A program made the position numbers and the translations under genes. Of a stretch of DNA of 64,000 bases, positions 4,423 to 53,982 are shown in pieces. The DNA comes from an uncultured Candidatus Midichloriaceae bacterium (GTDB lineage: Bacteria; Pseudomonadota; Alphaproteobacteria; Rickettsiales; Midichloriaceae), in the NCBI GenBank assembly GCA_964558975.1, contig CAZLFQ010000001.1, forward strand, positions 365,341 to 429,340, read 5' to 3'. The notes under the pieces are model-generated. The model had not been told where the DNA came from, searched no databases, and worked only from the letters and a program-made list of their open reading frames with translations. Numbering within the stretch: position 1 is the first letter of the stretch; every line of letters starts with the position of its first letter.

Positions 4423-6888
4423 TTATATTTCGGCAAGTTTGGCTGATAGCCGTAACTTTGAATTTTCCAACATAATTACTTCACTATCTAAATTATCAAC
4501 TCTCATAACCGAAATAGCATTAGATGCGTTTTTAATATCATTAACTATAGAGTCATTAAGCTCACATCCAGCATAATAAACATGCTCAAGTGGTGTCTTA
4601 ATTGAAATACCTTTTTCAGATTTAAATTTACGAACCAAAGCTAAAACTTCTATAGCATTTTTACCTTCAGCATCCGCAGCTTCTGAATAAAAATGTTCTT
4701 CAATTTTAGGCCAAGCACCACGCGAGTTTACTGATTCACCACCAAAGATTCCTTCATTTAATTCATCACAAATATGTGGGACGAATGGCGCGAATAATCT
4801 GAATAACGTTTTTAGTACGTGGTGAATTGTTATAATTGCACTCTGCCTACTTTTTGCATTCTCAGGATTCTCATCATACGATCTACCTTTGATAATTTCT
4901 AAATAGTTATCACATAAATCATTCCAGAAGAAATCTTCTATTGCCACACGTGCATCACAGTATTCATATTCCTTAAATGCTTTAGTAGCCTTTTCAGTCG
5001 CTTTTTGCAAACGAGAAAGTATCCATAAATCCATCGTTTCAAAAATCAAACCACTTGCCACATCCTCTTTGGGAGTAGATGGTTTTGAAGTTAGGCTCGC
5101 AAATTGCAATGCTGCAAACTTTGATGCATTCCAAAGCTTATTTACCAGCTTCTTACCAATTTTAAATACGTCTTCAGAGTACGCAATATCAACACCTAGC
5201 CTAGAAGTAGATGCCCAGTATCTAATAACATCAGCGCCTTTCTCTATAATTAAGTCAGTTGGCGTTACTGTATTACCTTTTGATTTGCTCATTTTTGTTT
5301 TATCAGCAGCCAAACACCAACCACTAAGAATGATATTTTTCCACGGAATTGTATCTGAATGATAAAGTGCTTTTACAATTGTGTAGAATGTCCACGTTCT
5401 AATAATTTCATGCGCCTGCGGTCTTAAATCTGCAGGAAATAACTGATTGTGACGCTGTGCATCCACAACGAAATCGTCACTAATACCACGCGAATTTAGC
5501 TGTGGGCTAATACTACTGGTTGCCCAAGTATCCATGACGTCCACATCTGGAGTAACTTCCTCCTTGGTATATCCCTTTGGTAAATCAACAAGTGGATCTA
5601 CAGGTAACTGATCAATTTCAGCAAATAAAACTTTGCCTTCTTCACCCGCGCGTTTTGAATACCAAACTGGGAATGGTACACCAAAATAACGCTGACGAGA
5701 AATACACCAATCTTGGTTTAATCCGTTAATCCAATGTTCAAGGCGAACTTTCATATAGTCAGGGAACCAGTTACACTCATTCGCTTTTTGCAGTAGCTCT
5801 TCTTTTTTATCGAGAATTTTAACATACCACTGAGGTGTTGAAATTATCTCAAGTGGCGCTTTAGAACGCTCCGCAACTTTCACCATTTGGGTGATTGGCT
5901 CTTGTTTAATCAACAAACCTTGCTCTTGCAAATCAGCGATAATTTTAACCCGCGCATCTTTTGCATACATGTCGGTATAAATACCAGAGTCCAACATTTT
6001 CCCTTCACGCGAAATGAAGTTTTTGAATGGAAGTTTATGACGCATTATCCATGTCAAATCTAAGAAATCACCAAAGCATGAGCAATATGCAAGACCTGAG
6101 CCTTTATCCATCAGCACATCTTCATCAGCAATCATTAGCACTTTATGGCCAAAAATAGGGGTAACAACTTTTTTGCCTGCTAAATGTTTATAGCGCTCAT
6201 CTTCAGGATGATACATCACCGCTAAACACGCAGCAAATAGCTCGGGGCGAGTTGTAGCAATAGTTAAATCCTGCCCATCTTCAGTTTTGAAGATGACATA
6301 ATTCATTGTGCTTTGGCGTTCTTTGTCTTCAATTTCAGCTTGGGCGATAGCAGTTCTATCAACTGGGTCCCAAAATGTTGGCGAGTCTTTTCTTTCTATT
6401 CTTCCTTTTTTAATAAGGTCAAGGAAAGACATCTGTGATAATTTACGCGACTGCGCACTGATTGTTTGATACTCTTGCCCCCAATCGAAGCTCAAGCCTA
6501 CGGCTTTAAATAATCTTCTAAATTCCTCTTCTGATTCGGCAACAACTTCTTGGCAAAGCTTTATGAAATCAGCTCTGGGCATTTGGACAGCCCTAACTTC
6601 CTTCACTTTTTCAACTAAACGCTCTGTAGGAAGACCATTGTCATCAAAACCAATTGGGTAAAACACATTTTTACCGCTCATACGCTGGTATCTAGCTATT
6701 ATATCAGCTTGCGTATAGCTAAATATATGCCCCATGTGTAAAAGCCCAGAAACCGTAGGTGGCGGCGTATCAATTACATAGCTGTTTTCCCTAGATTCAC
6801 TAGGGTTCCATTTATAAATTCCTTTCTTTTCCCAAAGCTCATGCCATTTCTTCTCAGAGGCCTGAGTATCGTAATTCTGCTGCAACAT
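4423..6888 (-). CDS. valS: valine--tRNA ligase (short form, 821 aa)
   Basis: Class I HIGH-type motif (LLHMGHIFSY) and KMSKS (KTKMSKSKGN). The N-terminus, YDTQASEKKWHELWEKKGIY, is ValRS-like. Confidence 0.9.
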   Translation of the reverse strand: MLQQNYDTQASEKKWHELWEKKGIYKWNPSESRENSYVIDTPPPTVSGLLHMGHIFSYTQADIIARYQRMSGKNVFYPIGFDDNGLPTERLVEKVKEVRAVQMPRADFIKLCQEVVAESEEEFRRLFKAVGLSFDWGQEYQTISAQSRKLSQMSFLDLIKKGRIERKDSPTFWDPVDRTAIAQAEIEDKERQSTMNYVIFKTEDGQDLTIATTRPELFAACLAVMYHPEDERYKHLAGKKVVTPIFGHKVLMIADEDVLMDKGSGLAYCSCFGDFLDLTWIMRHKLPFKNFISREGKMLDSGIYTDMYAKDARVKIIADLQEQGLLIKQEPITQMVKVAERSKAPLEIISTPQWYVKILDKKEELLQKANECNWFPDYMKVRLEHWINGLNQDWCISRQRYFGVPFPVWYSKRAGEEGKVLFAEIDQLPVDPLVDLPKGYTKEEVTPDVDVMDTWATSSISPQLNSRGISDDFVVDAQRHNQLFPADLRPQAHEIIRTWTFYTIVKALYHSDTIPWKNIILSGWCLAADKTKMSKSKGNTVTPTDLIIEKGADVIRYWASTSRLGVDIAYSEDVFKIGKKLVNKLWNASKFAALQFASLTSKPSTPKEDVASGLIFETMDLWILSRLQKATEKATKAFKEYEYCDARVAIEDFFWNDLCDNYLEIIKGRSYDENPENAKSRQSAIITIHHVLKTLFRLFAPFVPHICDELNEGIFGGESVNSRGAWPKIEEHFYSEAADAEGKNAIEVLALVRKFKSEKGISIKTPLEHVYYAGCELNDSIVNDIKNASNAISVMRVDNLDSEVIMLENSKLRLSAKLAEI

Positions 6889-7010
6889 ATAACAAAACCC
6901 TTATTTAGGTATGAAATATACCGCAAAACATTCGCAATGTAATCAATAAATTTACTATTTATTAACCATTTTACGATATACTTTATTTTAAGGTTAAATA
7001 AGGTTGAGCT

Positions 7011-7835
7011 ATGCGACCGAAAAGTTCAGTTTGCATTAAAATAGCTGCTTTGAGAGCTGGCTTCTCGCTCGTAGAGCTTGCAGCATCCTTAGTAATAATA
7101 GGACTAATAGTGGGAGCAATACTTTCAGGCGTCAGTATGTCTTCCCAAGCTGAAATTAGATCTGTTATCTCAGACTTACAAAGCTTTAGAGAAATGTACC
7201 AAACATTTTATAATCAATATAAACAAGTTCCAGGTGATATGGCCAATGCTTCAACAGTATGGCCTGCAGCAAACGTATGTTCTCTTGGACCAACATGTAA
7301 TGGAGATGGCGATGGTATTATAGAAGCGATACATGGAAGTAGCCTTGATGAAACCATAAGAGCTTGGAAACATCTAGAGCTAGCAGGCATTAGCGGATTA
7401 GGAATTGCATCAATTCCAGCCGCTTATACTGGTGTACTTTTAGTTGGATCAATGTCACCAAGAAGTAAAATTGATGGGGCTGGTTATTATATGGCTGGGG
7501 GATCAGACATTGGTGGGGACGCTGGCGGTACAATTATAGCATCTCCATGGACTAATAGAACAAATGCTGTGTTTTTAGGCCAGAAAAGCTCGTCTGCAAC
7601 TTCAAATGGCTTAACTATAGGAGCAGTAACTGGAAAAATCGCATACAGCATCGATATTAAGATTGATGATGGCAAACTGTCAGGCTCATCGCCAATAGGA
7701 CAGGATACAGGAAAATTTAGAACAAGAAATGACAGCGCAGGTGGCACTACATGTATAAACGGTGGTAGTTATATATTAACTTCCACAGCAAAAACATGCT
7801 TAGTTGGCTATCAACTGCACGATGTGAATTTTTAG
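7011..7835 (+). CDS. prepilin-type N-terminal cleavage/methylation domain protein (type IV pilin / pseudopilin-like), paralog 1
   Basis: LRAG|FSLVELAASLVIIGLIVGAIL is the classic G|F-x-x-x-E prepilin peptidase site plus hydrophobic alpha1-N helix. An AAGG Shine-Dalgarno element precedes the ATG. Collinear paralog of the next gene. Confidence 0.8.
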   Translation: MRPKSSVCIKIAALRAGFSLVELAASLVIIGLIVGAILSGVSMSSQAEIRSVISDLQSFREMYQTFYNQYKQVPGDMANASTVWPAANVCSLGPTCNGDGDGIIEAIHGSSLDETIRAWKHLELAGISGLGIASIPAAYTGVLLVGSMSPRSKIDGAGYYMAGGSDIGGDAGGTIIASPWTNRTNAVFLGQKSSSATSNGLTIGAVTGKIAYSIDIKIDDGKLSGSSPIGQDTGKFRTRNDSAGGTTCINGGSYILTSTAKTCLVGYQLHDVNF

Positions 7836-7843
7836 GAGGCTTT

Positions 7844-8632
7844 ATGAATAGAGGATTTTCATTAATAGAACTAGCAGCTGTAATTTTAATTATAGCACTT
7901 CTGTTAGCAGGTATTTCTGCTGGATCAAGCCTAATAAAACAATCTGAAATGCAGGCTGTAATTTCTGATTTTCAAACCTTTAGAAAATCTTACTATGATT
8001 TTACCACTCGTTACAGACAAATTCCAGGAGACATGGCTAATGCCGCTACTTATTGGTCTTCTGGATGTACAGTCACAATAACATGTAACGGCGACGGGGA
8101 TGCTAGAGTTGAATCTGTATGGAACTCTAATACTGACGAAACTGCAAGAGCAATGAAGCATCTGAGCCTTGCGGAACTTATACCTCATGGCATCAATACC
8201 ATTCCTGCATCTTATGTTGGTGTGATTTCGGTTGGGGATCTAGCACCAGCTAGCAAGATTACAGGTGCAGGTTATTTCATATCTTCAGGAACAGATATAG
8301 GAGGTGATGCAGCAGGTTCGATTATAGCTTCACCCTGGTCATCTGATACTCTTATAAACTCAGTTTTTCTAGGCAGAAAAACTGGTTCGGCAACCTCAAA
8401 TGGACTAACCAATGGATCTGTTAACGCCAGCTATGCATATAACATTGATAAAAAAATAGATGATGGCAAAACCGATACTTCTGGTAACAGCATCGGGTTC
8501 AATACAGGAAAAATAAGAGCTAGAAATGACGGTACAGGCGCCACAACTTGTATCAACGCTGGTGCAACAGCATATGTAGTTACCTCTAAAGAAGAAACTT
8601 GCTTGGTAGGCTACCAGTTAAACGACAGATAA
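7844..8632 (+). CDS. prepilin-type N-terminal cleavage/methylation domain protein (type IV pilin / pseudopilin-like), paralog 2
   Basis: MNRG|FSLIELAAVILIIALLLAG. An AGGAGG Shine-Dalgarno element at 7834-7839 overlaps the stop of the upstream paralog and favours the ATG at 7844 over the tracked start at 7796. Shares QxPGDMANA, TCNGDGD, DIGGDA..IIASPW, SATSNGLT, KIDDGK and TCLVGYQL blocks with paralog 1. Confidence 0.8.
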   Translation: MNRGFSLIELAAVILIIALLLAGISAGSSLIKQSEMQAVISDFQTFRKSYYDFTTRYRQIPGDMANAATYWSSGCTVTITCNGDGDARVESVWNSNTDETARAMKHLSLAELIPHGINTIPASYVGVISVGDLAPASKITGAGYFISSGTDIGGDAAGSIIASPWSSDTLINSVFLGRKTGSATSNGLTNGSVNASYAYNIDKKIDDGKTDTSGNSIGFNTGKIRARNDGTGATTCINAGATAYVVTSKEETCLVGYQLNDR

Positions 8633-8636
8633 TGGA

Positions 8637-9365
8637 CTATTTCTTAGTCTTCTTGATTGCATCTAAAAATGCCTGTTCTAGGTTTTTAGTTTTAGCATTT
8701 TTTATGAATTTATCTACTGTGCCTTCATAGTACAAATCGCCATAATGAAGTATTCCAATACGATCACATATCTCTTCCACATCTGCCAGAATGTGTGATG
8801 AGAAAAATATAGAGTTTCCTTGAGTACGATAGTCTTGCAGCTTTTTCTTTAGAAAAATACGCGCACTAGGGTCAAGACCACTCATCGGTTCATCCAATAT
8901 TAAAAGTAAAGACTTTGATAAAAACACCGAAACTAAGCCAAGTTTTTGCCCCATTCCTTTAGAGTAACTACTAACCTTTTTTTCTAAAGCATTCACATCA
9001 AAATCTAATTCTTCACAAATCTTAATTGCAGATTTTTTATCATAAGATTGCTGGTAATAGCCTGAAGCGAGTTCTAAAAATTCATTCCCTTTTAAAAACT
9101 GAGATGGAGTGAATTTCTCAGGTAAGTAGCAAACTTTTCTCTTTGATTCTATATTAGTATTTTCGCTACCAAAAAGTTTTACCATGCCAGAATCTTGTCT
9201 TAATAGTCCAAGTATAATTTTAATTATGGTAGTTTTACCAATGCCATTCAAACCCACTAAACCATAAGTTTCTCCTTGAGAAATTTTTATGTCTAGGGAC
9301 TTAAGCACGTGGTGAGTTTTAAAACTCTTATTGATTTTAGATACTTCTATTGGAAAGGCTTTCAT
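8637..9365 (-). CDS. ABC transporter ATP-binding protein (ABC-2-like), no adjacent permease
   Basis: Walker A GLNGIGKTT, signature YSKGMGQKL and Walker B LLILDEP. Last gene of the 13164..8637 operon, 4 nt after the upstream stop. Confidence 0.85.
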   Translation of the reverse strand: MKAFPIEVSKINKSFKTHHVLKSLDIKISQGETYGLVGLNGIGKTTIIKIILGLLRQDSGMVKLFGSENTNIESKRKVCYLPEKFTPSQFLKGNEFLELASGYYQQSYDKKSAIKICEELDFDVNALEKKVSSYSKGMGQKLGLVSVFLSKSLLLILDEPMSGLDPSARIFLKKKLQDYRTQGNSIFFSSHILADVEEICDRIGILHYGDLYYEGTVDKFIKNAKTKNLEQAFLDAIKKTKK

Positions 9366-9369
9366 AATA

Positions 9370-10569
9370 TTATCCTATATCTCCTTCTTTGATTCTCATA
9401 TTATTTACTTCAAACAACTGGTTTGGGCTCAACCTAAATGAAACAAGTGCACTTGTTTCATCTGGCAGATACACCTCTATATCTTTTTTTGGAGAAACGA
9501 ATTTATTTCTAGAAACTGCAGTCAATCTAGACCTCCAATCTGGGGCAATTGTCTCAAGATTTGGCGTACTCCATTCAACCACTACATATTCCTTTGTAAT
9601 CTCTCTTATCACCAGACCAACTTCATTACCATCATTGCTAATTTTTTGGCTATTGATCCATACTGCCCATTTGTCATTTGAATAGTAAATTAAAGAATTT
9701 AAATAAAATTTACGGCTTGTGGATTTAGCGTCTGCTTTAACTAAACTGCCAGCTATATCATCACTGATACCAAAATTACTCAGAATACTATTAATTTGAT
9801 CAATTTCTTCTGGTGTGAACATTACAGATTTTAAAGTGAATTCAGTAGTTTCTTTACCACTTTTTTCTTTTTCAGCATCTTCTGTTTTATCATTACTATC
9901 TCCAGCAACTTTAACTTTTTCTGAGGCTACAGGTGTTGTGTTAACTCTTGGTTCACTTATTACAGGTATCGGAACAGTTGTAACTTTTGGTTGCTCAGAA
10001 GGTGATGGCACAGGCACTACACTTTGAGCATCAGCAACTTGTGGTACGTCAGACGTCACTTTTACCGCACTTGTCAAAGCACTATCCTTAACTGGTTTGC
10101 AATGCATATCCATTGTATTTTTGAATTCTGTTTTTTCCTCATCGGTTAATGAACTCTGAGTAAATCCAAAAAACTGAATTTGAAACGCTTTATTTAATTG
10201 CCCAAGCTTTGCTGCAGGAAATATACAATCAATTCCACCAAAACCAGGAGTTCTTTCTTCATACTCACAACTGCCATCGGCAGTAGATCCTTTGATTTTT
10301 CTGAAAGTTTTACCAAACTGCTCCTTATCAACACATATTGCAGAAATACACCTATCAATGCTCAGAGGAACTTCTTTACAGTTCGGCGCAGCGAAATCCT
10401 TTACATCAACTTTATCATATACTTTAAACTCGCCATTTGGCTCTGTATTTTCTTGGTTAGGAATCACGACATAGCTATTATCATTATCTTCATAAGGGAT
10501 GTCATCAAAAGCACAGGCTAAGCTTGCGCTTAGAAGTGATAACAATAAAAATAATACGTTTCTTTTCAT
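9370..10569 (-). CDS. secreted hypothetical protein: Cys-rich N-domain, P/T/V linker and beta-rich C-domain (PilP/GspC-like by architecture only)
   Basis: MKRNVLFLLLSLLSASLACA signal peptide. The ATG at 10569 (TAA-N1-ATG after the upstream gene) is preferred over the tracked GTG at 10584. The proline-rich linker is VPVPSPSEQPKVTTVPIPVISEP. The C-terminus reads LIYYSNDKWAVWINSQKIS..GLVIREITKEYVVVEW. Confidence 0.6.
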   Translation of the reverse strand: MKRNVLFLLLSLLSASLACAFDDIPYEDNDNSYVVIPNQENTEPNGEFKVYDKVDVKDFAAPNCKEVPLSIDRCISAICVDKEQFGKTFRKIKGSTADGSCEYEERTPGFGGIDCIFPAAKLGQLNKAFQIQFFGFTQSSLTDEEKTEFKNTMDMHCKPVKDSALTSAVKVTSDVPQVADAQSVVPVPSPSEQPKVTTVPIPVISEPRVNTTPVASEKVKVAGDSNDKTEDAEKEKSGKETTEFTLKSVMFTPEEIDQINSILSNFGISDDIAGSLVKADAKSTSRKFYLNSLIYYSNDKWAVWINSQKISNDGNEVGLVIREITKEYVVVEWSTPNLETIAPDWRSRLTAVSRNKFVSPKKDIEVYLPDETSALVSFRLSPNQLFEVNNMRIKEGDIG

Positions 10570-10570
10570 T

Positions 10571-11317
10571 TTATTGTACCGCACTTGGTTCGTTTACAAC
10601 ATTTTCTGGCGTTGTAGTTTCAGTAGCTTTAGGTTCTACTGTTTTTCCTTTTTCTTTAATCATCACTTCACGTTTTGCTTTGACTTGTTCAGCAACTTCA
10701 GGCTTATCAAGCAAATCATGCCATAACAAATCTACTTTAATACTAACTATATCATTCTTATCGCCCCTTTCTAAACTTGCCAGTACTTCTTCATTTATCT
10801 CATTAATACCAACAAATGAGATATTTTTTACTTGGACATAACCAGGTAGCTCTTTTTGCAAATCTTCTATAAATGAGTATGCATCAATATCTGTATATGC
10901 CAAAAATACTAAAGTAAGATTGCTGAACATTATATTAACAAATTTATTATCAGCAAAATCTGGACGAGCTTCTGGAGTTGAAAGAGTAATATTCATTCCT
11001 TTGATTCGATACTTTTCTTCTAATTTATTTATTAGTACTTTTGAGAAATCCACTTGGATTCCTTCTCTAAATTCATGCTTTTGTCTAACTTTCTCATTCC
11101 ATTCTGCAATAGAAGCATCCGATAATATAATTTTACTCTTCATTTCCCCAACTTGATTCCTCAAATTTTGTGAGTCATTTTTATAGGAAATTTCTGCACC
11201 TTGATTTGTAAGTTGGTACGAAAACAAAGCTATAAATATTACTGAAACTACAAACAAAATTGAAGTAACTATTTTCAGTCTTTCAAGTGCGTAAGAGTGG
11301 ATATGTTTTACTAGCAT
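10571..11317 (-). CDS. bitopic membrane protein (GspM/PilO-like by architecture only)
   Basis: 248 aa. An AGAGGAG Shine-Dalgarno element precedes the ATG. One TM helix (IVTSILFVVSVIFIALF), then a coiled-coil-like segment, a small alpha/beta-looking domain and a K/E/T/P-rich tail. Confidence 0.6.
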   Translation of the reverse strand: MLVKHIHSYALERLKIVTSILFVVSVIFIALFSYQLTNQGAEISYKNDSQNLRNQVGEMKSKIILSDASIAEWNEKVRQKHEFREGIQVDFSKVLINKLEEKYRIKGMNITLSTPEARPDFADNKFVNIMFSNLTLVFLAYTDIDAYSFIEDLQKELPGYVQVKNISFVGINEINEEVLASLERGDKNDIVSIKVDLLWHDLLDKPEVAEQVKAKREVMIKEKGKTVEPKATETTTPENVVNEPSAVQ

Positions 11318-11328
11318 CTTCTCCTCTA

Positions 11329-13119
11329 TTACCTACTTATTCTACTATTGCCACCAGCAGGCCCAGCAGGATTGCTTGGCGCTGGTTCAGCAGCTTTTTG
11401 TACAGGCGTAGTAGTCTGCACCTGAACTTGCGGTGCTGGCGCTGTTCTTGTCACGACCCCTTTCTTAGTGGCAGGATATCTAACCTTAATAATAACCGAC
11501 ACTGGTGTATTTATATCTTGAAATGATATATTTTGAGGTAAATCAGAGATTGAAATATCATAATCCGAAAATGTTTTAATAACTTCTTTAGTAAAGCCAG
11601 TATATTTTTGTTCTAATTCTTCATAAGAAGAGCCTGTACGTCTCATGATTATTTCAAAATCTGCATCGATTACATAATCTCTAGTTTTGCCTAATACCGA
11701 TGTTTTTGATGTCTTATCTATATTTCTAAAACCAATCAGAACTGGATCTTCAAAATTCCATTTTATCACTTTTGCTCTAGCATATAGAGGCATTATATTT
11801 GATAATTTTGCAACAATATCAATTGGATTAGACTTTATTGAAGTGAAGAATTTGTTAAGTGCAACAACTTCAATCACATGATCTGCAGTTAATGGATCTT
11901 TGATTTTCGATTCAGTATTTGATAACCTCTTAGATTGCTCATCAAGCTGTGCTTTGAAATTATCAACCTGCACTTGAATTTGCTTAATAGATTCTTTTAA
12001 ATCAAAAATGTCATTGGCATAATACAAGCTCAGCACCGGTAACACAAAGCATAGACAAATAAAAAACCAACCAAGATAATGAATCGTTTGAGCAGCATTA
12101 TAAACTTTACCTGTAACAGGGGTATGCAGGGTTATAATTTTGGTTTTAACTTTGCTTAATACTGTTAGTATTGTCGGATCTGCAAACTTGTCTTTTTCAG
12201 CAGCAGCTTCAGGAACTTTTACTTTATTAGCTAATTCAAAAGGAGTATAGGTGAACAGATTGGTTGCTTTAATTTTCTCTTTTCTTAAATAGCGAAGAAT
12301 TTCGCTTGAGAGCACTAGATACACGTCCACCTCCTGCTCTGTACCTAGGGATAACCTAGACATATACTCAATTGAATTTGCAATCTCTTGCTCAATATTA
12401 CCAGCAACCACATCTGGTGATGGATCATTAATATTGTTTAGTAGTCGACTAAAAATAATTTTTCCATCTTGGAAAGCTGCTTGTCTAAACCCACCAGTTT
12501 TATTTTGGGATAGATATACTTCCCACCTTCCTGCAGCACCAGGATCTTTAGTTTTAAAATTCGACAAGAATTTCTCTACACTTGTCTTCTTAGACTTTTC
12601 TTGAAATTGATTTTCTCGTTGAGCAATATACTTTAACTTAGTCACAACTGAATAAATCTCTACAGGTAAAAAGTAGATCCCAGCGATAACGTTATGAAAA
12701 GGTAAAAAGAAATCAATCCAAGTTGATATAGGTGGCTCCATTCCAGATGAGATGAAAGTGTAAACCCAATCATGTCTACCTGTAGGTGCTCTGCCAATTT
12801 GTACACAAGATTTAATATGCCCTTTTGGAACTTCTTTTTCCAAATGCTTTTGCGCAATTTTACCAATACCCATTTGACTTACTGCAGGTAGTGATCTTTG
12901 AACATAAGATTGATCAAGTGTATCGATGTAAATATAGACCATCGCATCTTTGTCGTGCGCAAGCAATTCCCTAAGTTTATCTGTGTCGGTTTGCTCTGTG
13001 CTCTTCACAAATAATTTAGCTTTTGCATATCCACTTTGTGTATAAACAACAACAGCGCCTTCCTCACCTACAGACACCTGAAACGTGTTTTTCTTTTGTT
13101 GAAACAGCTTTCTAGCCAT
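11329..13119 (-). CDS. bitopic membrane protein with large cytoplasmic N-domain (GspL / PilM-PilN-fusion-like by architecture only)
   Basis: The tracked ORF starts at a TTG (13164). The ATG at 13119 (MARKLFQQKK) has an AAGG Shine-Dalgarno element 5-6 nt upstream. Single central TM helix (LGWFFICLCFVLPVLSLYY), then the heptad-like stretch DLKESIKQIQVQVDNFKAQLDEQSKRL, a periplasmic domain and a P/A/Q/V-rich tail. Confidence 0.6.
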   Translation of the reverse strand: MARKLFQQKKNTFQVSVGEEGAVVVYTQSGYAKAKLFVKSTEQTDTDKLRELLAHDKDAMVYIYIDTLDQSYVQRSLPAVSQMGIGKIAQKHLEKEVPKGHIKSCVQIGRAPTGRHDWVYTFISSGMEPPISTWIDFFLPFHNVIAGIYFLPVEIYSVVTKLKYIAQRENQFQEKSKKTSVEKFLSNFKTKDPGAAGRWEVYLSQNKTGGFRQAAFQDGKIIFSRLLNNINDPSPDVVAGNIEQEIANSIEYMSRLSLGTEQEVDVYLVLSSEILRYLRKEKIKATNLFTYTPFELANKVKVPEAAAEKDKFADPTILTVLSKVKTKIITLHTPVTGKVYNAAQTIHYLGWFFICLCFVLPVLSLYYANDIFDLKESIKQIQVQVDNFKAQLDEQSKRLSNTESKIKDPLTADHVIEVVALNKFFTSIKSNPIDIVAKLSNIMPLYARAKVIKWNFEDPVLIGFRNIDKTSKTSVLGKTRDYVIDADFEIIMRRTGSSYEELEQKYTGFTKEVIKTFSDYDISISDLPQNISFQDINTPVSVIIKVRYPATKKGVVTRTAPAPQVQVQTTTPVQKAAEPAPSNPAGPAGGNSRISR

Positions 13120-13201
13120 TACTGCCTTTGAATATCCTCTACTATTAAGATATAAATGTATCAAAAGCTTACGTAAAGCCTTAATTTAACTTTAAGAATA
13201 T

Positions 13202-14086
13202 TTATAAGGCTTTAGATATATTTTTAATAAAGGCTCTAGCTTGATCTTTAATCATTGGATCACGCAATGCAAATTCTATATTTGCTTCTAAAAAGCCCAT
13301 ATGGTTTCCGCAGTCTAAACGCTTTCCTTTAAACCTATAACCAAATGTATCACATGATGGAATCATCGCTTTCATGGCGTCGGTCAATTGAATCTCCCCT
13401 CCTCTCCCAGATGGAGTTTTTTCTAAGAAATCAAAAATTTCTGGTTCTAAAATATATCTTCCAACTATTGAAATGTTAGATGGTGCATCTTTTGGCTCAG
13501 GTTTTTCCACCATATCTGTGATTTTCATTGTAACGCCATCATCTTCAGATGGGCTAACAATTCCATACTTAGATGTATCTTCTTTCGCAATATCAGCTAC
13601 AGCCAAGATATTTCCACGCTTTTCATCATATGATTCCACCATTTCTTTAAGTACACTATTGCTTCTTTCAGAAATAAATAGTTCATCTGCCAATAAAACA
13701 GCGAAAGGCTCATTACCCACGAAATTCCGCGCACACCATACTGCATGCCCTAATCCTAACGGGTGCTGTTGCCTTATAAAGGCGATTTTACCTGCATCTG
13801 GAACCCAATCCCTAGTCAGGGTTAAAGCATCATTTTTTTCTTTATTACCAAGATGGCTCTCAAGCTCGTATACACAGTCAAAATGGTTGGTGATTATATT
13901 TTTATTTCGCCCAGTTATAAATATAAATTCCTCAACCCCAGCAGCAACGGCCTCTTCAAAAGCATGTTGAATAAGGGGCTTGCTAGCAATTGGCAGCATT
14001 TCTTTTGGTAACGCTTTAGTTGCAGGCAAGAACCTAGTCCCTAAACCACCCACTGGAAATACTGCTTTTCTTATCTTTTTTGACAT
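13202..14086 (-). CDS. galU: UTP--glucose-1-phosphate uridylyltransferase
   Basis: KAVFPVGGLGTRFLPATKALPKEMLP N-terminal signature. 294 aa. Confidence 0.9.
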   Translation of the reverse strand: MSKKIRKAVFPVGGLGTRFLPATKALPKEMLPIASKPLIQHAFEEAVAAGVEEFIFITGRNKNIITNHFDCVYELESHLGNKEKNDALTLTRDWVPDAGKIAFIRQQHPLGLGHAVWCARNFVGNEPFAVLLADELFISERSNSVLKEMVESYDEKRGNILAVADIAKEDTSKYGIVSPSEDDGVTMKITDMVEKPEPKDAPSNISIVGRYILEPEIFDFLEKTPSGRGGEIQLTDAMKAMIPSCDTFGYRFKGKRLDCGNHMGFLEANIEFALRDPMIKDQARAFIKNISKAL

Positions 14087-14262
14087 TATTTTTTCTTCAA
14101 ATTTTGATTAAATACTATCACAACCTTAAAAACATGTCCTGAGCTATTTTCGTATATTACTTACAAACCCAGAAGTACATTCCTTAATTTTTTAAAAATC
14201 TTAATGATTCACAGCTAAAATCACGATATAGTCCCCAAAAAATTAGGGATAAAGAAATACTT

Positions 14263-15756
14263 ATGCAGGAAAAATTACAATTACCAGAATTACAATTACC
14301 TAATATTTCAAGCTGCACAACCACAAAAGATGCATTTAATTTAATATCCAGTTTATCGGCTGAAGATGTAATTCAGCAAGATAGTACGGGGGCAACCATA
14401 TTACATCACTTGTGTTTTAGTCATAAAATCGCGCCAATCAAGTTTGATCGCAAAGTTATAATGGAAAAAATAATTGAGAAAAATCCAAGTATTGTAAATT
14501 TAAAATGGAATGACTTAGATAATCCCATTCAATTAGCAATTAAGCAAGACGATGTTGAAGCTGTAGCAATTCTAGTCCCTTACTACTCTTCAATTATTAT
14601 TCATGAAAGACACATTGTAGCAGATGACAATGGCGAAATAGTAAAAGAAGAGATAATAGATATGTTTCCTGTGTCTTTCGCTTTGAGGCATGCTCAATTA
14701 GATATGGTTAATTGTCTTTATACAGCAGGTTTTGGGTTTGTTGAAGGCATGAATATGTCTAAGTATTGTTTGGATTATCCCAAGAAAGAAAATCTAGAAG
14801 ATCTATATATAGACTTACTCCTTGCTGGTAAAAAAGAAGAATTAAAAGGCTTGCATGAGTATTTAGGTTATTACAAGGGGTATAGAGGTCAGAGCAGCGA
14901 AGAACTAGTAGATGCCCTATATAATCAAAACGAAAGTGAGGCATTTAAACTTATCTCTCAGGGACATTATATCTATAATGACAGGGTCTCTAGCTTATTT
15001 TTATCTTCTTGTGGTAAAGCTATAGATTTTATATTTTTGCGAACTTTAGCTCACCCCAACTACAGTACTAGAATTATTGATCAAGATAAAAATTGTAAAA
15101 CTCTGCTTCGCTTCACTATTACCTATTCACATCTTACACTAGCTATTAAACTAATAGAAGCTGGAGCAGATGTTAATACAACTAATAACTGCAAATATAC
15201 CTTACTTCACCAAGCTATTCGAAACCATAGTGGTACTTTAGTAGAAAAATTATTAAAGCTAGGGGCGGATATTGATATGGCTGATGAAAATCAGCAAACT
15301 GCAATTCACTTAGCTGCACGTTTTGGTAATGATGCAATATTAAAACAAATTTTAGATCATGGGGCAGATGTAAACAAACCTACCAACTATTTTAAAGATA
15401 CTCCACTTCACTTAGCTGCTGAAGAGGGAGCCATTTACACTGTAAGGATGCTGTTGCAGCGAAGCGAAATAGATGTCTATTTAAAAAACAGAAATGGTGA
15501 AACTGCTCTTGATGTTGCAAAGAACAATTTAATTAAAGAACTTATAAGTGAACACATGAAAGCTAAAACAGAGCAAACTAGATTACTTGCTACCGCCAGC
15601 AACACGAACACAGCAGCAGCTTCACACTCAACAACAGCCGCTACTGTGACACCTACCAAAGAAGGGGCTTTCAGTCTATCAGCTTTACTGGCGCCCACTA
15701 AAGGTAATAAAACCAAACTTTATCTGCCCGACGATAATTCTCTTGGTAAGCAGTAA
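14263..15756 (+). CDS. ankyrin-repeat protein
   Basis: C-terminal half holds tandem ANK repeats (TLLHQAIRNHSGTLVEKLLKLGADID, TAIHLAARFGNDAILKQILDHGADVN, TPLHLAAEEGAIYTVRMLLQ). It ends in an S/T/A-rich tail. Confidence 0.85.
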   Translation: MQEKLQLPELQLPNISSCTTTKDAFNLISSLSAEDVIQQDSTGATILHHLCFSHKIAPIKFDRKVIMEKIIEKNPSIVNLKWNDLDNPIQLAIKQDDVEAVAILVPYYSSIIIHERHIVADDNGEIVKEEIIDMFPVSFALRHAQLDMVNCLYTAGFGFVEGMNMSKYCLDYPKKENLEDLYIDLLLAGKKEELKGLHEYLGYYKGYRGQSSEELVDALYNQNESEAFKLISQGHYIYNDRVSSLFLSSCGKAIDFIFLRTLAHPNYSTRIIDQDKNCKTLLRFTITYSHLTLAIKLIEAGADVNTTNNCKYTLLHQAIRNHSGTLVEKLLKLGADIDMADENQQTAIHLAARFGNDAILKQILDHGADVNKPTNYFKDTPLHLAAEEGAIYTVRMLLQRSEIDVYLKNRNGETALDVAKNNLIKELISEHMKAKTEQTRLLATASNTNTAAASHSTTAATVTPTKEGAFSLSALLAPTKGNKTKLYLPDDNSLGKQ

Positions 15757-16518: not shown

Positions 16519-17787
16519 TTAATTCGGGTGAGACCATAATTCTAATTCACTATGAACGGGTGCAATCAAAGCTCCTATATCTAAACCTCCATATGGAGTA
16601 TCATCGTCTTCTGACCAAACTTGATTTAAACTTAACACCTGTGTAGATGCAAGTGTGAAAGTACAATTTACATGACTTAAAGTTAAATCGCCTAAACTAC
16701 CAGAATTTCTTGCTCCTGTTCCTCTACAAAGAATTGCACCTGTCGAGTCATTTCTAAGACTTATTTGATGCGTTTCAACATAATATGCACCTGACCAACC
16801 TCTTGCAATGTACGTACCAGGCCCTAAAGTTACTTGCCCAGTTCCAGCGTTGAGTGTAGCTGAAGTTAAATTATTAAATCTCACAGTATTTAACCTCCTA
16901 GTACTACTCATTGCAACGCCAGCACTACTTTGATCAGCATACTGCTCTACAAATAAAGCATATTTATCGAAATTTGCAGTTGCTGGAGTTACTGGCCCGC
17001 CACCACCTGCTGCACCTGAAGAATAAGTAACTTCCCTAACAATCTGCTGCTTAGTTTTCCATCTAATATAGTCATCGTAGTAACCACCAGTACTAGAATC
17101 AAATATAGATTCCACAAACACAGCATCACTATCGCAATTTTCTACATCTCTACCACCTGAACAGGCAACCATAGGGTTTACCGTACCTAAGTAATTCACG
17201 GCACCCTTATTATTTGCTCCATGACTTACAAGTGTGTACGCAACAATATTTGCATATGTCGCTGAGTTAGCTTGATGAATCCTGTTAGCTCCAGCATCTT
17301 CAACTCTAATAACATCAGCTTGTGTGCTTGCGTATGGAGCAAATAAAGCATTAGTTCTTGCCATATTCTTCACAGCAACATACGTAATTCTTGTATTCCA
17401 ACTATCAAACATCATTTCATCTGGCAGATTCAACGTACGCGTTGGAATAGCACCTATCCTCACATTTTCATTTGCAGTAGCACCAGCCACTTCTACTGTG
17501 CCCGCAACCGTAGCGGCACTACAGTCTGTTGCAACCCCAAAGTTAGCTGTTGCTGGCAAATCATTTACTCTTGCTGGGCATGGTATGAAACCATTTTGCG
17601 CATAAAATGTATCGATAGCTTTTTGGATTGTATCCAGCTTCGAATTCATTATAGTTGTGGAGTTAGTTTGATGAATTGTAGGAATCATTCCTACAATTGC
17701 TCCAATGGTTATGCCAAATATCAATATGACAATTGAGAGTTCAATTATAGTAAACCCTAACCTATAGCTAGATTCACTTACACGCAC
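16519..17787 (-). CDS. large prepilin-type protein: GspG-like pseudopilin core plus extra C-terminal domain
   Basis: GTG start preceded by an AAGGAG Shine-Dalgarno element. YRLG|FTIIELSIVILIFGITIGAIVG is the prepilin site. GspG-like blocks are IQKAIDTFYAQNGFIPCP, DSWNTRITYV and YTLVSHGANNKGA. A Gly linker (SSGAAGGGGPV) is followed by a roughly 150-aa beta-rich domain. Confidence 0.8.
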   Translation of the reverse strand: MRVSESSYRLGFTIIELSIVILIFGITIGAIVGMIPTIHQTNSTTIMNSKLDTIQKAIDTFYAQNGFIPCPARVNDLPATANFGVATDCSAATVAGTVEVAGATANENVRIGAIPTRTLNLPDEMMFDSWNTRITYVAVKNMARTNALFAPYASTQADVIRVEDAGANRIHQANSATYANIVAYTLVSHGANNKGAVNYLGTVNPMVACSGGRDVENCDSDAVFVESIFDSSTGGYYDDYIRWKTKQQIVREVTYSSGAAGGGGPVTPATANFDKYALFVEQYADQSSAGVAMSSTRRLNTVRFNNLTSATLNAGTGQVTLGPGTYIARGWSGAYYVETHQISLRNDSTGAILCRGTGARNSGSLGDLTLSHVNCTFTLASTQVLSLNQVWSEDDDTPYGGLDIGALIAPVHSELELWSHPN

Positions 17788-19329: not shown

Positions 19330-20580
19330 TTATCTTTCAAACAAGGCTTTAATTGGAGAATAACAATAAAGTGGGACATCTTGTGCACCATCATACTTTG
19401 CATTAAAAATATAATCATTACATGCATAAAAATTTGCTATTCCAGCACAGATACCAAATGAAAATATATTCGCAAAATTTTGTTGATTAAAATTACTATG
19501 AAGGCTGGTTCTACTAGCAAGGAAAAATGAAGCTCCCACACAAGCAAATGTCAAGAACAACCCTGATAAAATAGAGGCATTAGAAATTGCAACGAGATTA
19601 AATAACACCATGCCTACTATACCCACTTCTATAGTAAATATAAGTGCTGGAGATATAATTTTACAAAGACCAAAAACAGGTACTTCAATACATTTAAACA
19701 AATCTCTAATTAGTCGTGGTGATTTACATAACAATCTGTATGCAGCTATATAGTGCCCTAAATGCAAAGCCGAATCTATTGGTGTACGATTCGCATCATC
19801 TTTGATCAACAAACTTTCTTTATAACCATTAACTCCTTCTAACTGCTTTAATAATTCTAAATCATTAAAAATTGCTGCGTTCTGGGCTATTGTACAACCA
19901 AACCGCCCTTGAACTAAAGGATTTGGCAACTTAGATGGACGTGTATGTTGTCTACCATGTAGGCGATCTGAATAGTATGTACCCCAAGCTTCAACCAACT
20001 TTGCTTCTACTTCATAATATTCGTGTAGCATCTTTTTTAAAGGCTGGTTTTTAAATTTTGGATCAAAAATACAAAACTTTTCAGGTTCTTTAAGCTCACA
20101 TTTTTTATATAAATCAAGTAGCAATAGATTAAATTGTTCAGATCGATAATATCGAGATATTAAATGCCATGTTAATATGCCATCTAGCTCCTTTCTGTCG
20201 AAGCCATTATCTAGTAAGAATTTCGCAATTTCTGCTTGTCCTTCTTCAAAAACATAGCGAAGAAGTGGAGTGCCATCTATATTTAAACTGGATTTTTGAC
20301 TCATATAAAAAGGCAAAAGAGCTTTTACCATTTTCGGATCATCGTGTCTTACAGCCCACTCAATTGGCAAGTCATCGTCTAATCTGTAATTTAGAACTTG
20401 CGGATCACTATTAATTAACGACAAAGCTCTGTCTATGCTTCCTTCATCTTTTACTGGCAGGTATTGCGAATTTACTAGTGCTTGAAGCGTATGAAAAACT
20501 TCTAAATACTTCAATTCAGGAATTTCTCTCATGATTTTAATTCTATTAATTTGCCAGATTATATCATGAAAATGATACAA
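19330..20580 (-). CDS. ankyrin-like repeat protein with C-terminal multi-helix hydrophobic anchor
   Basis: The N-terminal half is paralogous to the 14263..15756 protein (DPQVLNYRLDDDLPIEWAVRHDDPKMVKALLPFYMS versus NPSIVNLKWNDLDNPIQLAIKQDDVEAVAILVPYYSS). ANK-like units are TPLLRYVFEEGQAEIAKFLLDNGFD and RTPIDSALHLGHYIAAYRLL. The last ~110 aa are hydrophobic (ALIFTIEVGIVGMVLFNLVAI, LSGLFLTFACVGASFFLA, IFSFGICAGIANFYA). The start may be MREIPEL (20532). Confidence 0.65.
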   Translation of the reverse strand: MYHFHDIIWQINRIKIMREIPELKYLEVFHTLQALVNSQYLPVKDEGSIDRALSLINSDPQVLNYRLDDDLPIEWAVRHDDPKMVKALLPFYMSQKSSLNIDGTPLLRYVFEEGQAEIAKFLLDNGFDRKELDGILTWHLISRYYRSEQFNLLLLDLYKKCELKEPEKFCIFDPKFKNQPLKKMLHEYYEVEAKLVEAWGTYYSDRLHGRQHTRPSKLPNPLVQGRFGCTIAQNAAIFNDLELLKQLEGVNGYKESLLIKDDANRTPIDSALHLGHYIAAYRLLCKSPRLIRDLFKCIEVPVFGLCKIISPALIFTIEVGIVGMVLFNLVAISNASILSGLFLTFACVGASFFLASRTSLHSNFNQQNFANIFSFGICAGIANFYACNDYIFNAKYDGAQDVPLYCYSPIKALFER

Positions 20581-20656: not shown

Positions 20657-21598
20657 CTAGCTAAGCTTAAAGCTCTTCTTCTTAGGCTTAATGCCTTTCT
20701 TTTTGAGTTCATCAAGAATTTCAGGCATAAGCTTGAGTGTTTCTTGGCGGCCTATTTCATATAATTTTTGGTTATGAGCATCATCAAACATCCCGAATCC
20801 ATTTAAATTTGGGTGAATACTAACATCTGAAGTAAGAGACTGAAGCCTTGAAAGTGCATAATAACTTACATACAACGACTTATTTGAAACATCCCACATA
20901 TTATTAAGCGGCAAATCATCACCTGGGGTACTAATATCGACAGAAATAAGAACTTTAGGATTGTACTGTCTAGCCGTAGCAACGGGTACTGGTTCAACAA
21001 CTCCACCGTCTACTAAGAACATTCCATATTCTTTTACTGGGGTAAAGACAGGTGGAATTGCAGACGAAGCATGCACTGCAACAGCTACAGGACCGCTAGA
21101 AATTGCAATCGGTCTATCGTTTTCTAAATCTGTAGCAACTGCAACAAATGGGATTTTTAAATCCTCCATATTATTCACAGTTAAATTCTTAACAATAAAT
21201 TCTTCTAAGTAAAAACCTTGCACAGGCCCACGTACATCAATAAAAAAGTGGAGTGAATCAAAAAGCGAAACATCAAGAATATCCCACTTACTTATGTGCA
21301 ATACATTTTCCTTTAAAAGCTGAGAATCAGCATAATCAGCGTATAATGCTCCCATTATACTCCCAGCACTAGTTCCAACTATTAAATCTATTGGAATCCC
21401 ATATTCTTCAAGAACTTCCAGCACACCTAGATGCACAAAGCCTTTGCTACCACCACCACCTAATGCAATTGCAACATTTACATTTTCAATTTTTCTTGGT
21501 GGAGGAAGTCTATCGGGTGGAGTAATTAACCTTCTAGGAGCTGTACATGCCACTAGAGATAAAATAATTAATATAGAAAGTAACTTTTTCAATTTCAA
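20657..21598 (-). CDS. patatin-like phospholipase, predicted lipoprotein
   Basis: Lipobox LVA|C (LSLVACTAP), oxyanion GGGSKG, nucleophile elbow GTSAGS and catalytic Asp in VDGGVVEP. Confidence 0.85.
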   Translation of the reverse strand: MKLKKLLSILIILSLVACTAPRRLITPPDRLPPPRKIENVNVAIALGGGGSKGFVHLGVLEVLEEYGIPIDLIVGTSAGSIMGALYADYADSQLLKENVLHISKWDILDVSLFDSLHFFIDVRGPVQGFYLEEFIVKNLTVNNMEDLKIPFVAVATDLENDRPIAISSGPVAVAVHASSAIPPVFTPVKEYGMFLVDGGVVEPVPVATARQYNPKVLISVDISTPGDDLPLNNMWDVSNKSLYVSYYALSRLQSLTSDVSIHPNLNGFGMFDDAHNQKLYEIGRQETLKLMPEILDELKKKGIKPKKKSFKLS

Positions 21599-47866: not shown

Positions 47867-49384
47867 ATGACAATAATCAAAAACTCTATAACTGTGGGCG
47901 GACTGACGCTTATTTCACGAATTTTCGGCTATATTCGTGATGCCTTTATAGCATTTGTACTTGGCGCTGGTGCTCTAAACGATGCATTTATCATCGCATT
48001 TAGAATCCCAAATTTATTTAGAACAATCTTTGGAGAAGGCGCTTTTAGCGCTGCATTCGTACCGATATACTCAGCATTGTCATCAAAGTCAGGTACTGAA
48101 GCTAAGAAATTTGCACAACAAGTTCAGGCATGGTTATTAATAGCTCTAATAATTTTCTCAGCAATCATGATGTATTTCATGCCAGAGTTAGTCATGATAA
48201 TGGCACCTGGATATATTGATGATCAGAGCATATTCACTACCGCTGTAGCCTTAGGAAGGATTACCTTTCCTTACATAATATTTATGTCATTTCTAGCATT
48301 TTACGGCGGCATGCTTAATAGTCTTGGGAAGTATGCTGCATTTGCCTCAGCACCAATTTTATTAAATATAGTCATGATATTTTCTGTAGCGTTCGTTAGC
48401 ATCACAGAAACAAAGGCTCATGCTCTATCTTATGGTGTTTTAATAGCAGGTATTGTTGAATTATTATGGGTTTTATACTTTGCTAAAAAGAATAAAATTC
48501 TTGTTAACTTCACATTCTCACTAAAAATGTCGGACGAAGTAAAAACGCTACTTAAGCGTATTATACCTGGAATTTTTGGTTCTGGAATAGCCCAAATCAA
48601 CGTTTTTATAACAACCATTCTCGCTTCATATGTGATTGGCGGCATCTCTTATCTTTACTATGCAGATAGAATATACCAATTACCTTTAGCTTTAATAGGA
48701 ACAGCAATGGGAACTGTATTACTCCCTACCCTTGCAAAAGATTATGAAAACGGAAATAGTGCCAGTGCAATCAAAAATAAGAACACAGCAATTGAATTTT
48801 GCATGTTGTTTACAATTCCAGCCATGCTTGCAATCGTTATTCTTTCAGAAGATATTATAAAATTACTTTTTGAACATGGTGAATTTACTCACGAAGCAAC
48901 AATTCAAACTTCAAAAGCATTATCAGTATTCGCATTTGGATTGCCAGCATATGTGTTGTTAAAAGTTTTCACATCAAGCTTCTTTGCTGCAGGAGATACT
49001 AAAACTCCTGTAATAATCTCAACGCTAAGTCTTCTAGTAAACATTTTGATAAGTTTACTTTTGTTATCTCAATTCAAACACGTTGCAATTGCAATAGGAA
49101 GTGTCGTTTCGTCTTGGTTAATGCTCATAATTTTAATCAAACTCTCAATCAATAAGAAAAGATATAAATTATCTGAAAACAGCCTAACTAGAATCCTCAA
49201 ATTTTTCATATCAGGTTTACTTATGACGCTAGCAATATATGGCATTGAGTCACTGACTAACAACATAAATATATTCGTATCAATGGCACTTGAAATAATT
49301 GTCGGCGGAATTTTATATCTAGCGTTTTGCTACTTTTTTGGTGTTATAAGTAGAAAACAGATCACTCAGTTTTTAAAGATCTAG
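47867..49384 (+). CDS. murJ: lipid II flippase MurJ
   Basis: GGLTLISRIFGYIRDAFIAFVLGAG..DAFIIAFRIPNLFRTIFGEGAFSAAFVP N-terminal signature. 505 aa, polytopic. Confidence 0.9.
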   Translation: MTIIKNSITVGGLTLISRIFGYIRDAFIAFVLGAGALNDAFIIAFRIPNLFRTIFGEGAFSAAFVPIYSALSSKSGTEAKKFAQQVQAWLLIALIIFSAIMMYFMPELVMIMAPGYIDDQSIFTTAVALGRITFPYIIFMSFLAFYGGMLNSLGKYAAFASAPILLNIVMIFSVAFVSITETKAHALSYGVLIAGIVELLWVLYFAKKNKILVNFTFSLKMSDEVKTLLKRIIPGIFGSGIAQINVFITTILASYVIGGISYLYYADRIYQLPLALIGTAMGTVLLPTLAKDYENGNSASAIKNKNTAIEFCMLFTIPAMLAIVILSEDIIKLLFEHGEFTHEATIQTSKALSVFAFGLPAYVLLKVFTSSFFAAGDTKTPVIISTLSLLVNILISLLLLSQFKHVAIAIGSVVSSWLMLIILIKLSINKKRYKLSENSLTRILKFFISGLLMTLAIYGIESLTNNINIFVSMALEIIVGGILYLAFCYFFGVISRKQITQFLKI

Positions 49385-53923: not shown

Positions 53924-53966
53924 AATTTTTCTCCAAATACTTTTTGGTTTAAATGTGACAATACGA

Positions 53967-53982
53967 AGCAATATCTATGCCA
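53967..53982 (-). promoter_or_regulatory. sigma54-type -24/-12 promoter upstream of flgE
   Basis: The minus strand reads TGGCAT-AGATA-TTGCT, against the consensus TGGCAC-N5-TTGCW, with exact GG/GC spacing. It lies about 44 nt upstream of the preferred flgE ATG. Confidence 0.55.

Follow-up and report, generated by a model that had tools for sequence, protein, structure and literature searches.

A probable inner-membrane assembly platform of a type IVa pilus, with an ABC ATPase gene at its end, in a Candidatus Midichloriaceae genome

Which machine is served by four closely packed genes when three of their products belong to no recognised protein family? This question is raised by positions 8,637 to 13,164 of a 64,000-nucleotide stretch of DNA from an uncultured Candidatus Midichloriaceae bacterium (contig CAZLFQ010000001.1; hereafter the window, meaning the whole stretch that was analysed), where the minus strand encodes three proteins, here called P1, P2 and P3, and an ATP-binding cassette (ABC) ATPase. 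An earlier note on this DNA, made from the letters alone, had seen in the locus a novel or highly derived pseudopilus-associated envelope machine. Our analysis indicates that it probably encodes, for the type IVa pilus (T4aP) of Rickettsiales, the subcomplex that serves as inner-membrane alignment or assembly platform. What is encoded is not a new machine but the alignment subcomplex of a pilus already reported for Rickettsiales (PMC9352585 supplement), whose PilM, PilN, PilO and PilP had previously gone unrecognised; the flavour of this platform is that of a type IVa pilus resembling both the mannose-sensitive haemagglutinin (MSHA) pilus and type II secretion systems (T2SS). The genes are as follows.

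galU: 13202-14086, minus strand, upstream of P1; TIGR01099 at 340.8 bits, above cutoff
P1: 11329..13164, minus strand; predicted fusion of a PilM-like domain, a transmembrane (TM) helix, a coiled coil and a PilN-like domain; 611 aa from TTG 13164
P2: 10571..11317, minus strand; 248 aa; bitopic PilO/GspM-like putative partner of P1
P3: 9370..10569, minus strand; candidate PilP/GspC-type connector; 399 aa from ATG 10569 (9370-10584 and 404 aa if GTG 10584 is the start)
ABC ATPase: 8637..9365, minus strand; 242 aa; ABC-2-type nucleotide-binding domain without a transmembrane part

The tight packing of the four open reading frames (ORFs) and the junctions between them were as described before: an 11-nt gap that contains GGAG separates P1 from P2, P2 and P3 meet at TAA-A-ATG, and P3 and the ABC gene at TAA-TATT-ATG. 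The true start of P1 is probably ATG 13119, giving 596 aa as in database versions, and that of P3 is most likely ATG 10569, again as in database versions. galU does lie upstream on the same strand, but the 37-nt spacer given for it in the earlier note exists only with the TTG start of P1; because database P1 starts at ATG 13119, a spacer of 82 nt is more likely. A promoter and terminator scan of positions 6800-14400 gave no more hits than expected from shuffled sequence and is therefore uninformative on the operon. Purifying selection acts on each of the four genes in a comparison with an 81%-identical locus (L008), with a nonsynonymous divergence (pN) of 0.07-0.27 and a saturated synonymous divergence (pS) of at least 0.75; the pN of the ABC gene, 0.066, is the lowest of the four.

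The conservation of gene order is decisive for what the system is. ORFs were called in 88 sequences (87 fetched loci and the window), which were searched with iterated hidden Markov models (HMMs) and amounted to 82 non-redundant loci. Among species-representative genomes, the P1 family has 114 relatives: many carry the label Rickettsiales, the others only Alphaproteobacteria, Pseudomonadota or, once, Hyphomicrobiales. The nearest ones belong to metagenome-assembled genomes (MAGs) of Candidatus Midichloriaceae, order Rickettsiales (81% and 69% identity), as the earlier guess of a host-associated alphaproteobacterium would have it, and further ones to Jidaibacter, Rickettsiaceae and UBA6187, the last being placed in Athabascaceae (Schon et al. 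2022, PMC9352585). The exact order pilB-pilC-P1-P2-P3-ABC was found in 52 loci, with junctions mostly of -4 to about +30 nt (a few are longer or apparently overlap, the longest ORF having been taken), and in 29 of these 52 pilT/pilU come next on the opposite strand. The pilB-pilC pair stands immediately upstream of P1 in about 65-70 of the 82 loci, and genes of PilT/PilU-family retraction ATPases adjoin the cluster in about 40 fetched loci, usually as a pair. Of the non-redundant loci, 78 contain P2, 74 P3, 70 the ABC gene and 70 pilC; contig ends account for many of the gaps. The synteny of the four-gene set, which the earlier note had wished to see compared in related genomes, is conserved directly behind pilB-pilC in distant relatives.

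The neighbours also tell what kind of system this is. The PilB-like ATPase of the relatives reaches 502 bits with the type IV-A PilB model and 491 bits with GspE, and carries an MshE-type cyclic di-GMP (c-di-GMP) motif (53.5 bits vs a cutoff of 38); the platform protein scores 298 bits with the GspF model vs 243 bits with the PilC models; and the two downstream ATPases that were tested lie above the PilT/PilU cutoff. No secretin gene was found in the window or the fetched loci. Just past pilT/pilU, 29 loci encode a large protein of 685-876 aa with tetratricopeptide repeats (TPR; L003, 17350-19980, minus strand; L017, 11209-13266, minus strand), which may be a secretin-assembly factor of the PilF/PilW/MshN type. 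The window itself belongs to a Midichloriaceae-like clade (the window, L001, L008, L022 and L053) in which pilB and pilC are not adjacent to P1-P3; in the window and in L001, P1 follows galU.

P1 is, as far as its predicted structure goes, a PilM-PilN fusion with the architecture of GspL or MshI, as the earlier note had proposed, a reading borne out by the fold of its N-domain and the paralogy of its C-domain. An AlphaFold2 (AF2) model was built from an alignment of 41 homologues and has a mean predicted local distance difference test (pLDDT) score of 79.7. In this model, residues 1-330 form two beta-beta-beta-alpha-beta-alpha lobes, that is, the actin/FtsA-like ASKHA fold; the single TM segment, at about 357-375, lies inside a 70-residue helix (334-405); the periplasmic domain has the order alpha-beta-beta-alpha-beta-beta (H432-442, E447-457, E483-492, H499-516, E521-525, E540-548); and the P/A/Q-rich C-terminal tail is of low confidence or disordered. 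Invariant glycines fall in the turn between beta1 and beta2 and in a loop with the sequence NKTGGFRQ.

A Foldseek search of the P1 model against the PDB retrieved PilM of Pseudomonas, Thermus and Myxococcus at E 8e-8 to 1e-6 with probability 1.00 (the leading PilM matches, 5eou, 2ych and 3jc8_M, at 8e-8 to 3e-7), FtsA at about 1e-7 (best 1.4e-7) to 1e-4, and the cytoplasmic domain of EpsL/GspL at 2e-6 with a TM-score of 0.61-0.62 on the target. The 33 best matches (E 8e-8 to 1e-4) were all PilM, FtsA or cytoplasmic GspL/EpsL except for the second in rank, a Bacteroides protein that is uncharacterised and has the fold of an actin-like ATPase. The matches to FtsA are expected because PilM and FtsA share a fold. 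For the other half of the protein, a profile of 79 P1 C-terminal halves from the genome loci had M. xanthus PilN (3jc8_N) as its top match at E 0.0013, the next one being at 0.13, and the alignment spans the TM helix, the coil and the chain up to the first strand; the 41-sequence profile of P1 matched the same PilN weakly (3jc8, E 0.12). By sequence, the link of the P1 C-terminal half to PilN is marginal yet specific.

P2 has one N-terminal TM helix and is, by sequence comparison, a PilO/GspM-type paralogue of the periplasmic half of P1, in agreement with the GspM/PilO-like role suggested for it before. When 78 P2 sequences were aligned by hhalign with the post-TM half of 82 P1 sequences, the match had a probability of 94.7 and an E of 6e-8 over 121 columns, with coil, strands and helix in register. 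The controls were far from this level: P2 vs the P1 N-domain gave E 0.4, P3 vs the P1 C-terminal half 0.1, and P3 vs P2 0.07. With the smaller 41-sequence P1 alignment the match of P2 was weak (E 7e-4), and it became clear once the C-terminal half was isolated and more sequences were included. An adjacent pair of paralogous bitopic proteins is exactly the situation of PilN and PilO, or of the C-terminal half of GspL and GspM. On its own, P2 matched no Pfam family (PilN, PilO and T2SSM included), no NCBIfam model and no PDB entry, the PDB profile search returning coiled-coil noise.

From these results a working arrangement can be proposed. The PilM-like domain of P1 would lie under the membrane and dock the PilB/GspE motor and PilC as PilM and GspL do, while its PilN-like half would cross the membrane once and pair with P2 via the coiled coil and the alpha-beta-beta-alpha-beta-beta domain. 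P3, exported and soluble, would do the job of PilP/GspC: its beta-rich C-domain, together with a short helix of the pattern S-[LM]-[MF]-F-T-x-x-E, would connect the periplasmic domains of P1/P2 to the N0 ring of an MshL-like secretin encoded elsewhere. By analogy with PilGHI of Myxococcus, the ABC ATPase would energise an exporter or flippase. Within the Midichloriaceae clade, the platform genes would have become separated from pilB and pilC, and those platform genes that follow galU may be co-transcribed with it.

The last gene of the set raises its own question, that is, whether the ABC ATPase has anything to do with the pilus. The protein matches PF00005 at 1e-22, and its nearest solved relatives are TM0544 (1vpl, E 1e-38), Rv1218c, ABCA1/4 and NosF. 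In 70 ABC orthologues, conservation is 90% or higher for Walker A, the YSKGM signature, Walker B with its Glu, the D-loop and the H-loop, and the median identity of the orthologues to the window protein is 50%, vs 25-30% for P1 and 12-25% for P2 and P3. We take the ABC protein, catalytically intact to judge from these motifs and linked to the subcomplex throughout the order, to be an accessory devoted to the pilus system; by analogy, it is most likely the subunit that energises an exporter or flippase, with a membrane partner that would be unlinked or unrecognised. As the earlier note had claimed, there is no permease nearby: no ABC-2 permease was recognised among the scanned ORFs of the window, the scan leaving out five ORFs of at least 120 aa near the 3' end and short internal ORFs of the opposite strand. 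The sole unassigned membrane proteins of the window are an adjacent polytopic pair at 31446-33030 (minus strand), of 288 aa (6 TM, no Pfam match) and 248 aa (5 TM, weak GPDPase_memb match), downstream of an aminotransferase gene; an identity as ABC-2 permease is not shown for them. L001 has a similar pair, a 283-aa protein and an aminotransferase, at a distance of 4 kb from galU-P1.

It is a real, if lesser, possibility that the ATPase is unrelated to the pilus, namely a housekeeping ABC-2 exporter ATPase with its permease elsewhere that merely shares the operon. The protein is a typical ABC-2 domain. Its Q-loop (YLPE) and signature (YSKGM) were considered as unusual features and rejected as such; they are typical of the subfamily because they are common to TM0544 and Rv1218c, which work with permeases. 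Some lineages do not have the gene beside P1-P3 (L005/L013, L011 and L038 are examples), and operons of reduced genomes often mix functions, as galU preceding P1 illustrates here. In MAG SZAS-26 (L005, 13076-15556, on the same contig as L013), P1-P2-P3 are followed by a FliJ-like coiled-coil protein of 151 aa and a 644-aa protein in the place of the ABC gene. On the other hand, the ABC gene adjoins P3 or pilB in 70 of the 82 loci, often with overlapping or very short junctions, and the adjacency persists where P1 has diverged to 25-30% identity. It also stays with the cluster through two rearrangements, being placed divergently upstream of pilB in 7 loci and remaining with P1-P3, not with pilB/pilC, in the Midichloriaceae clade. 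No conserved polytopic family occurs within 10 kb of the ABC gene in any of the 70 loci, nor does any flank the relocated copies. Moreover, the gene-family table of Schon et al. 2022 contains two widespread ABC-2 ATPase clusters and one widespread ABC-2 permease cluster, and by its presence pattern the permease cluster pairs with one ATPase cluster; the remaining ATPase cluster, 01SYE, has the same presence or absence as pilC in 37 of 41 taxa. The pattern of 01SYE is suggestive only, because its identity with the ABC protein is unconfirmed and genome reduction correlates many losses.

A precedent also argues against a housekeeping role and in favour of an ATPase dedicated to the pilus. By analogy, the nearest one would be the Myxococcus PilGHI transporter, in which PilI serves as permease and PilG as an accessory protein; to our knowledge, the role of PilGHI has been unclear since 1998. 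In M. xanthus, homologues of ABC transporters are encoded within the pil cluster by pilG, pilH and pilI, and the deletion mutants of these genes are negative for type IV pili (T4P; PMC3724824, PMC6060248), which contradicts the earlier statement that no described T2SS or T4P includes an ABC ATPase. All three proteins are described as essential to pilin translocation across the inner membrane (PMC3724824; PMC6060248). Both systems encode an ABC-type ATPase inside a type IVa pilus cluster, a likeness of context; unlike the three proteins of Myxococcus, the Rickettsiales loci offer only the ATPase.

P3 is the least certain part of the platform in terms of family. The layout given for it in the earlier note holds: the signal peptide is followed by a Cys-rich N-domain, a linker of P/T/V/S and a C-domain rich in beta structure, here placed at residues about 245-399. 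The Cys-rich domain is restricted to the Midichloriaceae-like clade, and conservation within the family, which has more than 1,200 representative clusters in metagenomes, is confined to the C-terminal ~150 residues. P3 can be taken as a soluble periplasmic protein because nearly all members have cleavable signal peptides for signal peptidase I (A-x-A type) and a lipobox-like Cys occurs in only 8 of 74. We infer its assignment as a PilP/GspC-type connector, also suggested earlier, from where the gene lies, from the export of the protein and from a weak, recurring match to the HR domain of GspB. PF16537 (T2SSB), which covers this HR domain, was matched by 7 of 70 and by 5 of 113 P3 members, with a best E of 0.0012 and all scores below the gathering score; in the window protein the match covers residues 295-338 (E 0.011, sub-threshold). 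It is the only Pfam family that P3 matched repeatedly, in two largely independent sets of members and always over the same segment. The HR domain of GspB shares its fold with the GspC HR domain and PilP, a six-stranded sandwich, and binds the N0 domain of secretins (PMC9239104). Ahead of the beta-domain of P3 lies the conserved short helix S-[LM]-[MF]-F-T-x-x-E (residues about 245-265 in the window protein, with a nearly invariant S249), which may, by analogy with the N-terminal tail of PilP on PilN/PilO, be the peptide that docks P3 on P1/P2. Membership of P3 in the FN3 family was considered and rejected: titin repeats were retrieved with whole-sequence E values of 3.7e-5 and 0.0047, no single repeat had an independent E value below 0.24, and Foldseek did not confirm the match, which we treat as a probable short V-x-V-x-W strand motif and not as homology.

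P3 could also be a lineage-specific periplasmic accessory (adhesin-related, pilotin-like or peptidoglycan-related), with the secretin reached by another protein or by P1/P2 themselves; we find this doubtful, though not far-fetched. The AF2 model of residues 240-400 (pLDDT 73, core 80-94) is all-beta with about 11 strands, unlike the six of the HR sandwich, and a Foldseek search of this confident domain against the PDB returned nothing significant (best E 0.097, probability 0.18), and no PilP, GspC or GspB. The P3 profile did not find an HR-domain protein among solved structures, its hhalign comparisons with E. coli GspB, GspC and HofP ran in register but were not significant, and the protein has neither a lipobox nor a TM anchor, besides N-terminal regions that vary highly from member to member. 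Against this stand the place directly after the PilO-like gene, kept in 74 of 82 loci, the repeated matches to the GspB HR family, an HR-like pattern in the first five strands, which align in register with a two-sequence GspC HR alignment (hhalign E 0.2), and the fact that the neighbourhood contains no other conserved candidate gene for the connector.

Several observations weigh against the platform reading as a whole. No pilB, pilC, pilD, pilT or secretin gene is present in the scanned window. P1, P2 and P3 are recognised by no curated Pfam or NCBIfam model, and neither is a distant orthologous set; the earlier note was right that they show no family motif, the Pfam and NCBIfam scans giving only noise, and for P1 nothing such as PilM_2 or its equivalents appeared at E up to 1 with either the window protein or a distant homologue. 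Comparisons by hhalign of the P1, P2 and P3 family profiles with the single E. coli K-12 sequences of GspB, GspC, GspL, GspM and HofM/N/O/P gave E 0.0098 or worse. In the fold search of P1, FtsA scores nearly as well as PilM, and the PilN match of its C-terminal half is only marginally significant. P3 matches HR-domain proteins significantly by neither Foldseek, PDB profile nor hhalign, and is not anchored by a lipid or in the membrane as PilP, GspC and GspB are. As for the ATPase, its domain is an ordinary member of a subfamily normally paired with ABC-2 permeases, its linkage to the cluster could reflect operon inertia, and the correlation of 01SYE with pilC could simply track genome reduction.

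A bolder view of the ABC protein makes it a fourth cytoplasmic pilus ATPase beside PilB, PilT and PilU, docked on the PilM-like ring or on the P1/P2 helices, and not a conventional transporter motor. ATP use would then drive or gate platform assembly, pilin extraction or secretin engagement via a non-permease partner. SufC is an ABC domain that works with such a partner, SufBD. We regard this role as unlikely.

It is quite improbable that the cluster is a T2SS-like pseudopilus machine that secretes proteins and not an extendable and retractable pilus. The likeness to the T2SS is clear in P1, whose cytoplasmic actin-like domain, single TM helix and periplasmic ferredoxin-like domain are exactly the fused architecture of GspL, in the GspM paralogue-like partner, and in P3, for which GspC/GspB HR is the only family weakly matched. 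In addition, the neighbouring platform protein scores higher with GspF than with PilC, the motor scores about as well with GspE as with PilB, and the weak family matches of the pilins are to GspG/GspH. What speaks for the pilus are the retraction ATPase genes beside the cluster in about 40 loci, two of which were tested and lie above cutoff, the size of the pilins (274-422 aa vs about 140 aa for GspG), and the c-di-GMP domain of the PilB-like ATPase, of an MshE type that is typical of pilus motors. No genes of the GspI/J/K type and no adjacent GspC-GspD were seen in the loci, nor a GspH-K set. Unlike GspC, P3 has no TM anchor, PDZ domain or coiled-coil domain, and hhalign to E. coli GspL, GspM, GspC and GspB was not significant.

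That P1 is a cell-division protein, FtsA- or FtsL-like, is hardly conceivable: FtsA is among its top folds (E 1.4e-7) and three of its homologues (P0004, P0007 and P0025) are named "cell division protein FtsL" by the Joint Genome Institute (JGI), but its gene sits between pilC and the PilO-like gene on nearly all long contigs, its C-terminal half matches PilN, and the neighbourhood contains no division genes. We reject the JGI label because of context and fold; the TM helix together with the coiled coil seems to have led to a misannotation.

Compared with the PilM-PilN-PilO-PilP complex of the T4aP of Pseudomonas, Myxococcus and Thermus, the platform proposed here shares the actin-like cytoplasmic module, the PilN-like module, a paralogous PilO-like partner, a fourth exported protein encoded next, and the neighbourhood of pilB, pilC and pilT/pilU. 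It differs in that PilM and PilN are one polypeptide, that curated HMMs miss P1-P3, that the PilP candidate is soluble, without a lipobox and with a larger beta-domain, that the secretin gene is not adjacent, and that an ABC ATPase gene is appended. The MSHA pilus of Vibrio also has a PilM/PilN-like fusion, MshI, followed by the PilO-like MshJ and the small MshK. It resembles our system further in the c-di-GMP-binding motif of the motor, in the large TPR protein near the cluster in 29 loci, which is reminiscent of MshN, and in the Rickettsiales secretin, annotated as K12282 mshL (Schon et al. 2022). Unlike in the MSHA pilus, the gene order here is different and PilT/PilU are adjacent; no Msh model of NCBIfam or Pfam was matched; and where MshM is an AAA+ (ExeA-like) ATPase, the Rickettsiales loci encode an ABC ATPase.

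Type IV pili are considered ancestral in Rickettsiales and have been proposed to mediate host-cell attachment (PMC9352585, PMC10847448). The supplement of Schon et al. 2022 recognises pilins, pilB, pilC, pilD, the mshL-annotated secretin and pilT, with pilM/N/O/P essentially absent, and flags as T4P_pilN 8% of the members of one broadly distributed cluster, 01Z70 (PMC9352585); the supplement of Castelli et al. 2024 contains no pilM-Q terms. The recognised parts list therefore left the Rickettsiales pilus without its obligatory alignment complex, a gap that P1, P2 and probably P3 fill. Because a known gap is filled, the platform assignment is of moderate interest, and with profiles of P1-P3 one could score properly, throughout the order, which genomes have a functional pilus and which do not. 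The association of a permease-less ABC ATPase with the cluster is the part most worth following up: it would be an independent second case, after Myxococcus PilGHI, of ABC-type ATPase genes tied to a T4aP cluster, and a comparative handle on the role of PilGHI would be the most interesting outcome. More speculatively, the divergent GspL/M/C-like profiles might aid the search for the "missing" GspL, GspM and GspC of the mitochondrial type II secretion system (PMC10128026).

The three prepilin-type genes that had been noticed near the operon were confirmed by the motif that they share, G|F(S/T)(L/I)(V/I)EL, and by family matches.

Prepilin gene 1: 7011..7835, plus strand, convergent with the operon; 274 aa; N_methyl/TIGR02532, motif GFSLVEL
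Prepilin gene 2: 7796..8632, plus strand; PF07963 at E 1.2e-4; TIGR02532 at 24.2 bits, above cutoff
Prepilin gene 3: 16519..17787, minus strand, 3.4 kb upstream of P1; 422 aa; motif LG|FTIIEL; TIGR02532 and weak GspG/GspH matches

Prepilin gene 2 likely starts at M17 (about 7844), giving the leader MNRG|FSLIEL, which is short and canonical; the overlap of 40 nt between the tandem pilin genes arises as an artefact when the longest ORF is chosen. The stop codons of prepilin gene 2 and of the convergent ABC gene are 4 nt apart. At the position of prepilin gene 1, L001 has two genes (262 and 282 aa) that have no precomputed Pfam match.

The window also encodes eukaryote-like candidate effectors.

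U-box protein: 37722-38480, plus strand
Ankyrin-repeat protein: 14263-15756, plus strand
Ankyrin-repeat protein: 19330-20580, minus strand
Ankyrin-repeat protein: 49373-50965, minus strand
Patatin-like phospholipase: 20657-21598, minus strand

Finally, a 957-aa FlgE-like flagellar hook protein (Flg_bbr_C, FlgE_D2) is encoded at 51098-53971 on the minus strand, so that this genome keeps flagellar as well as pilus genes.

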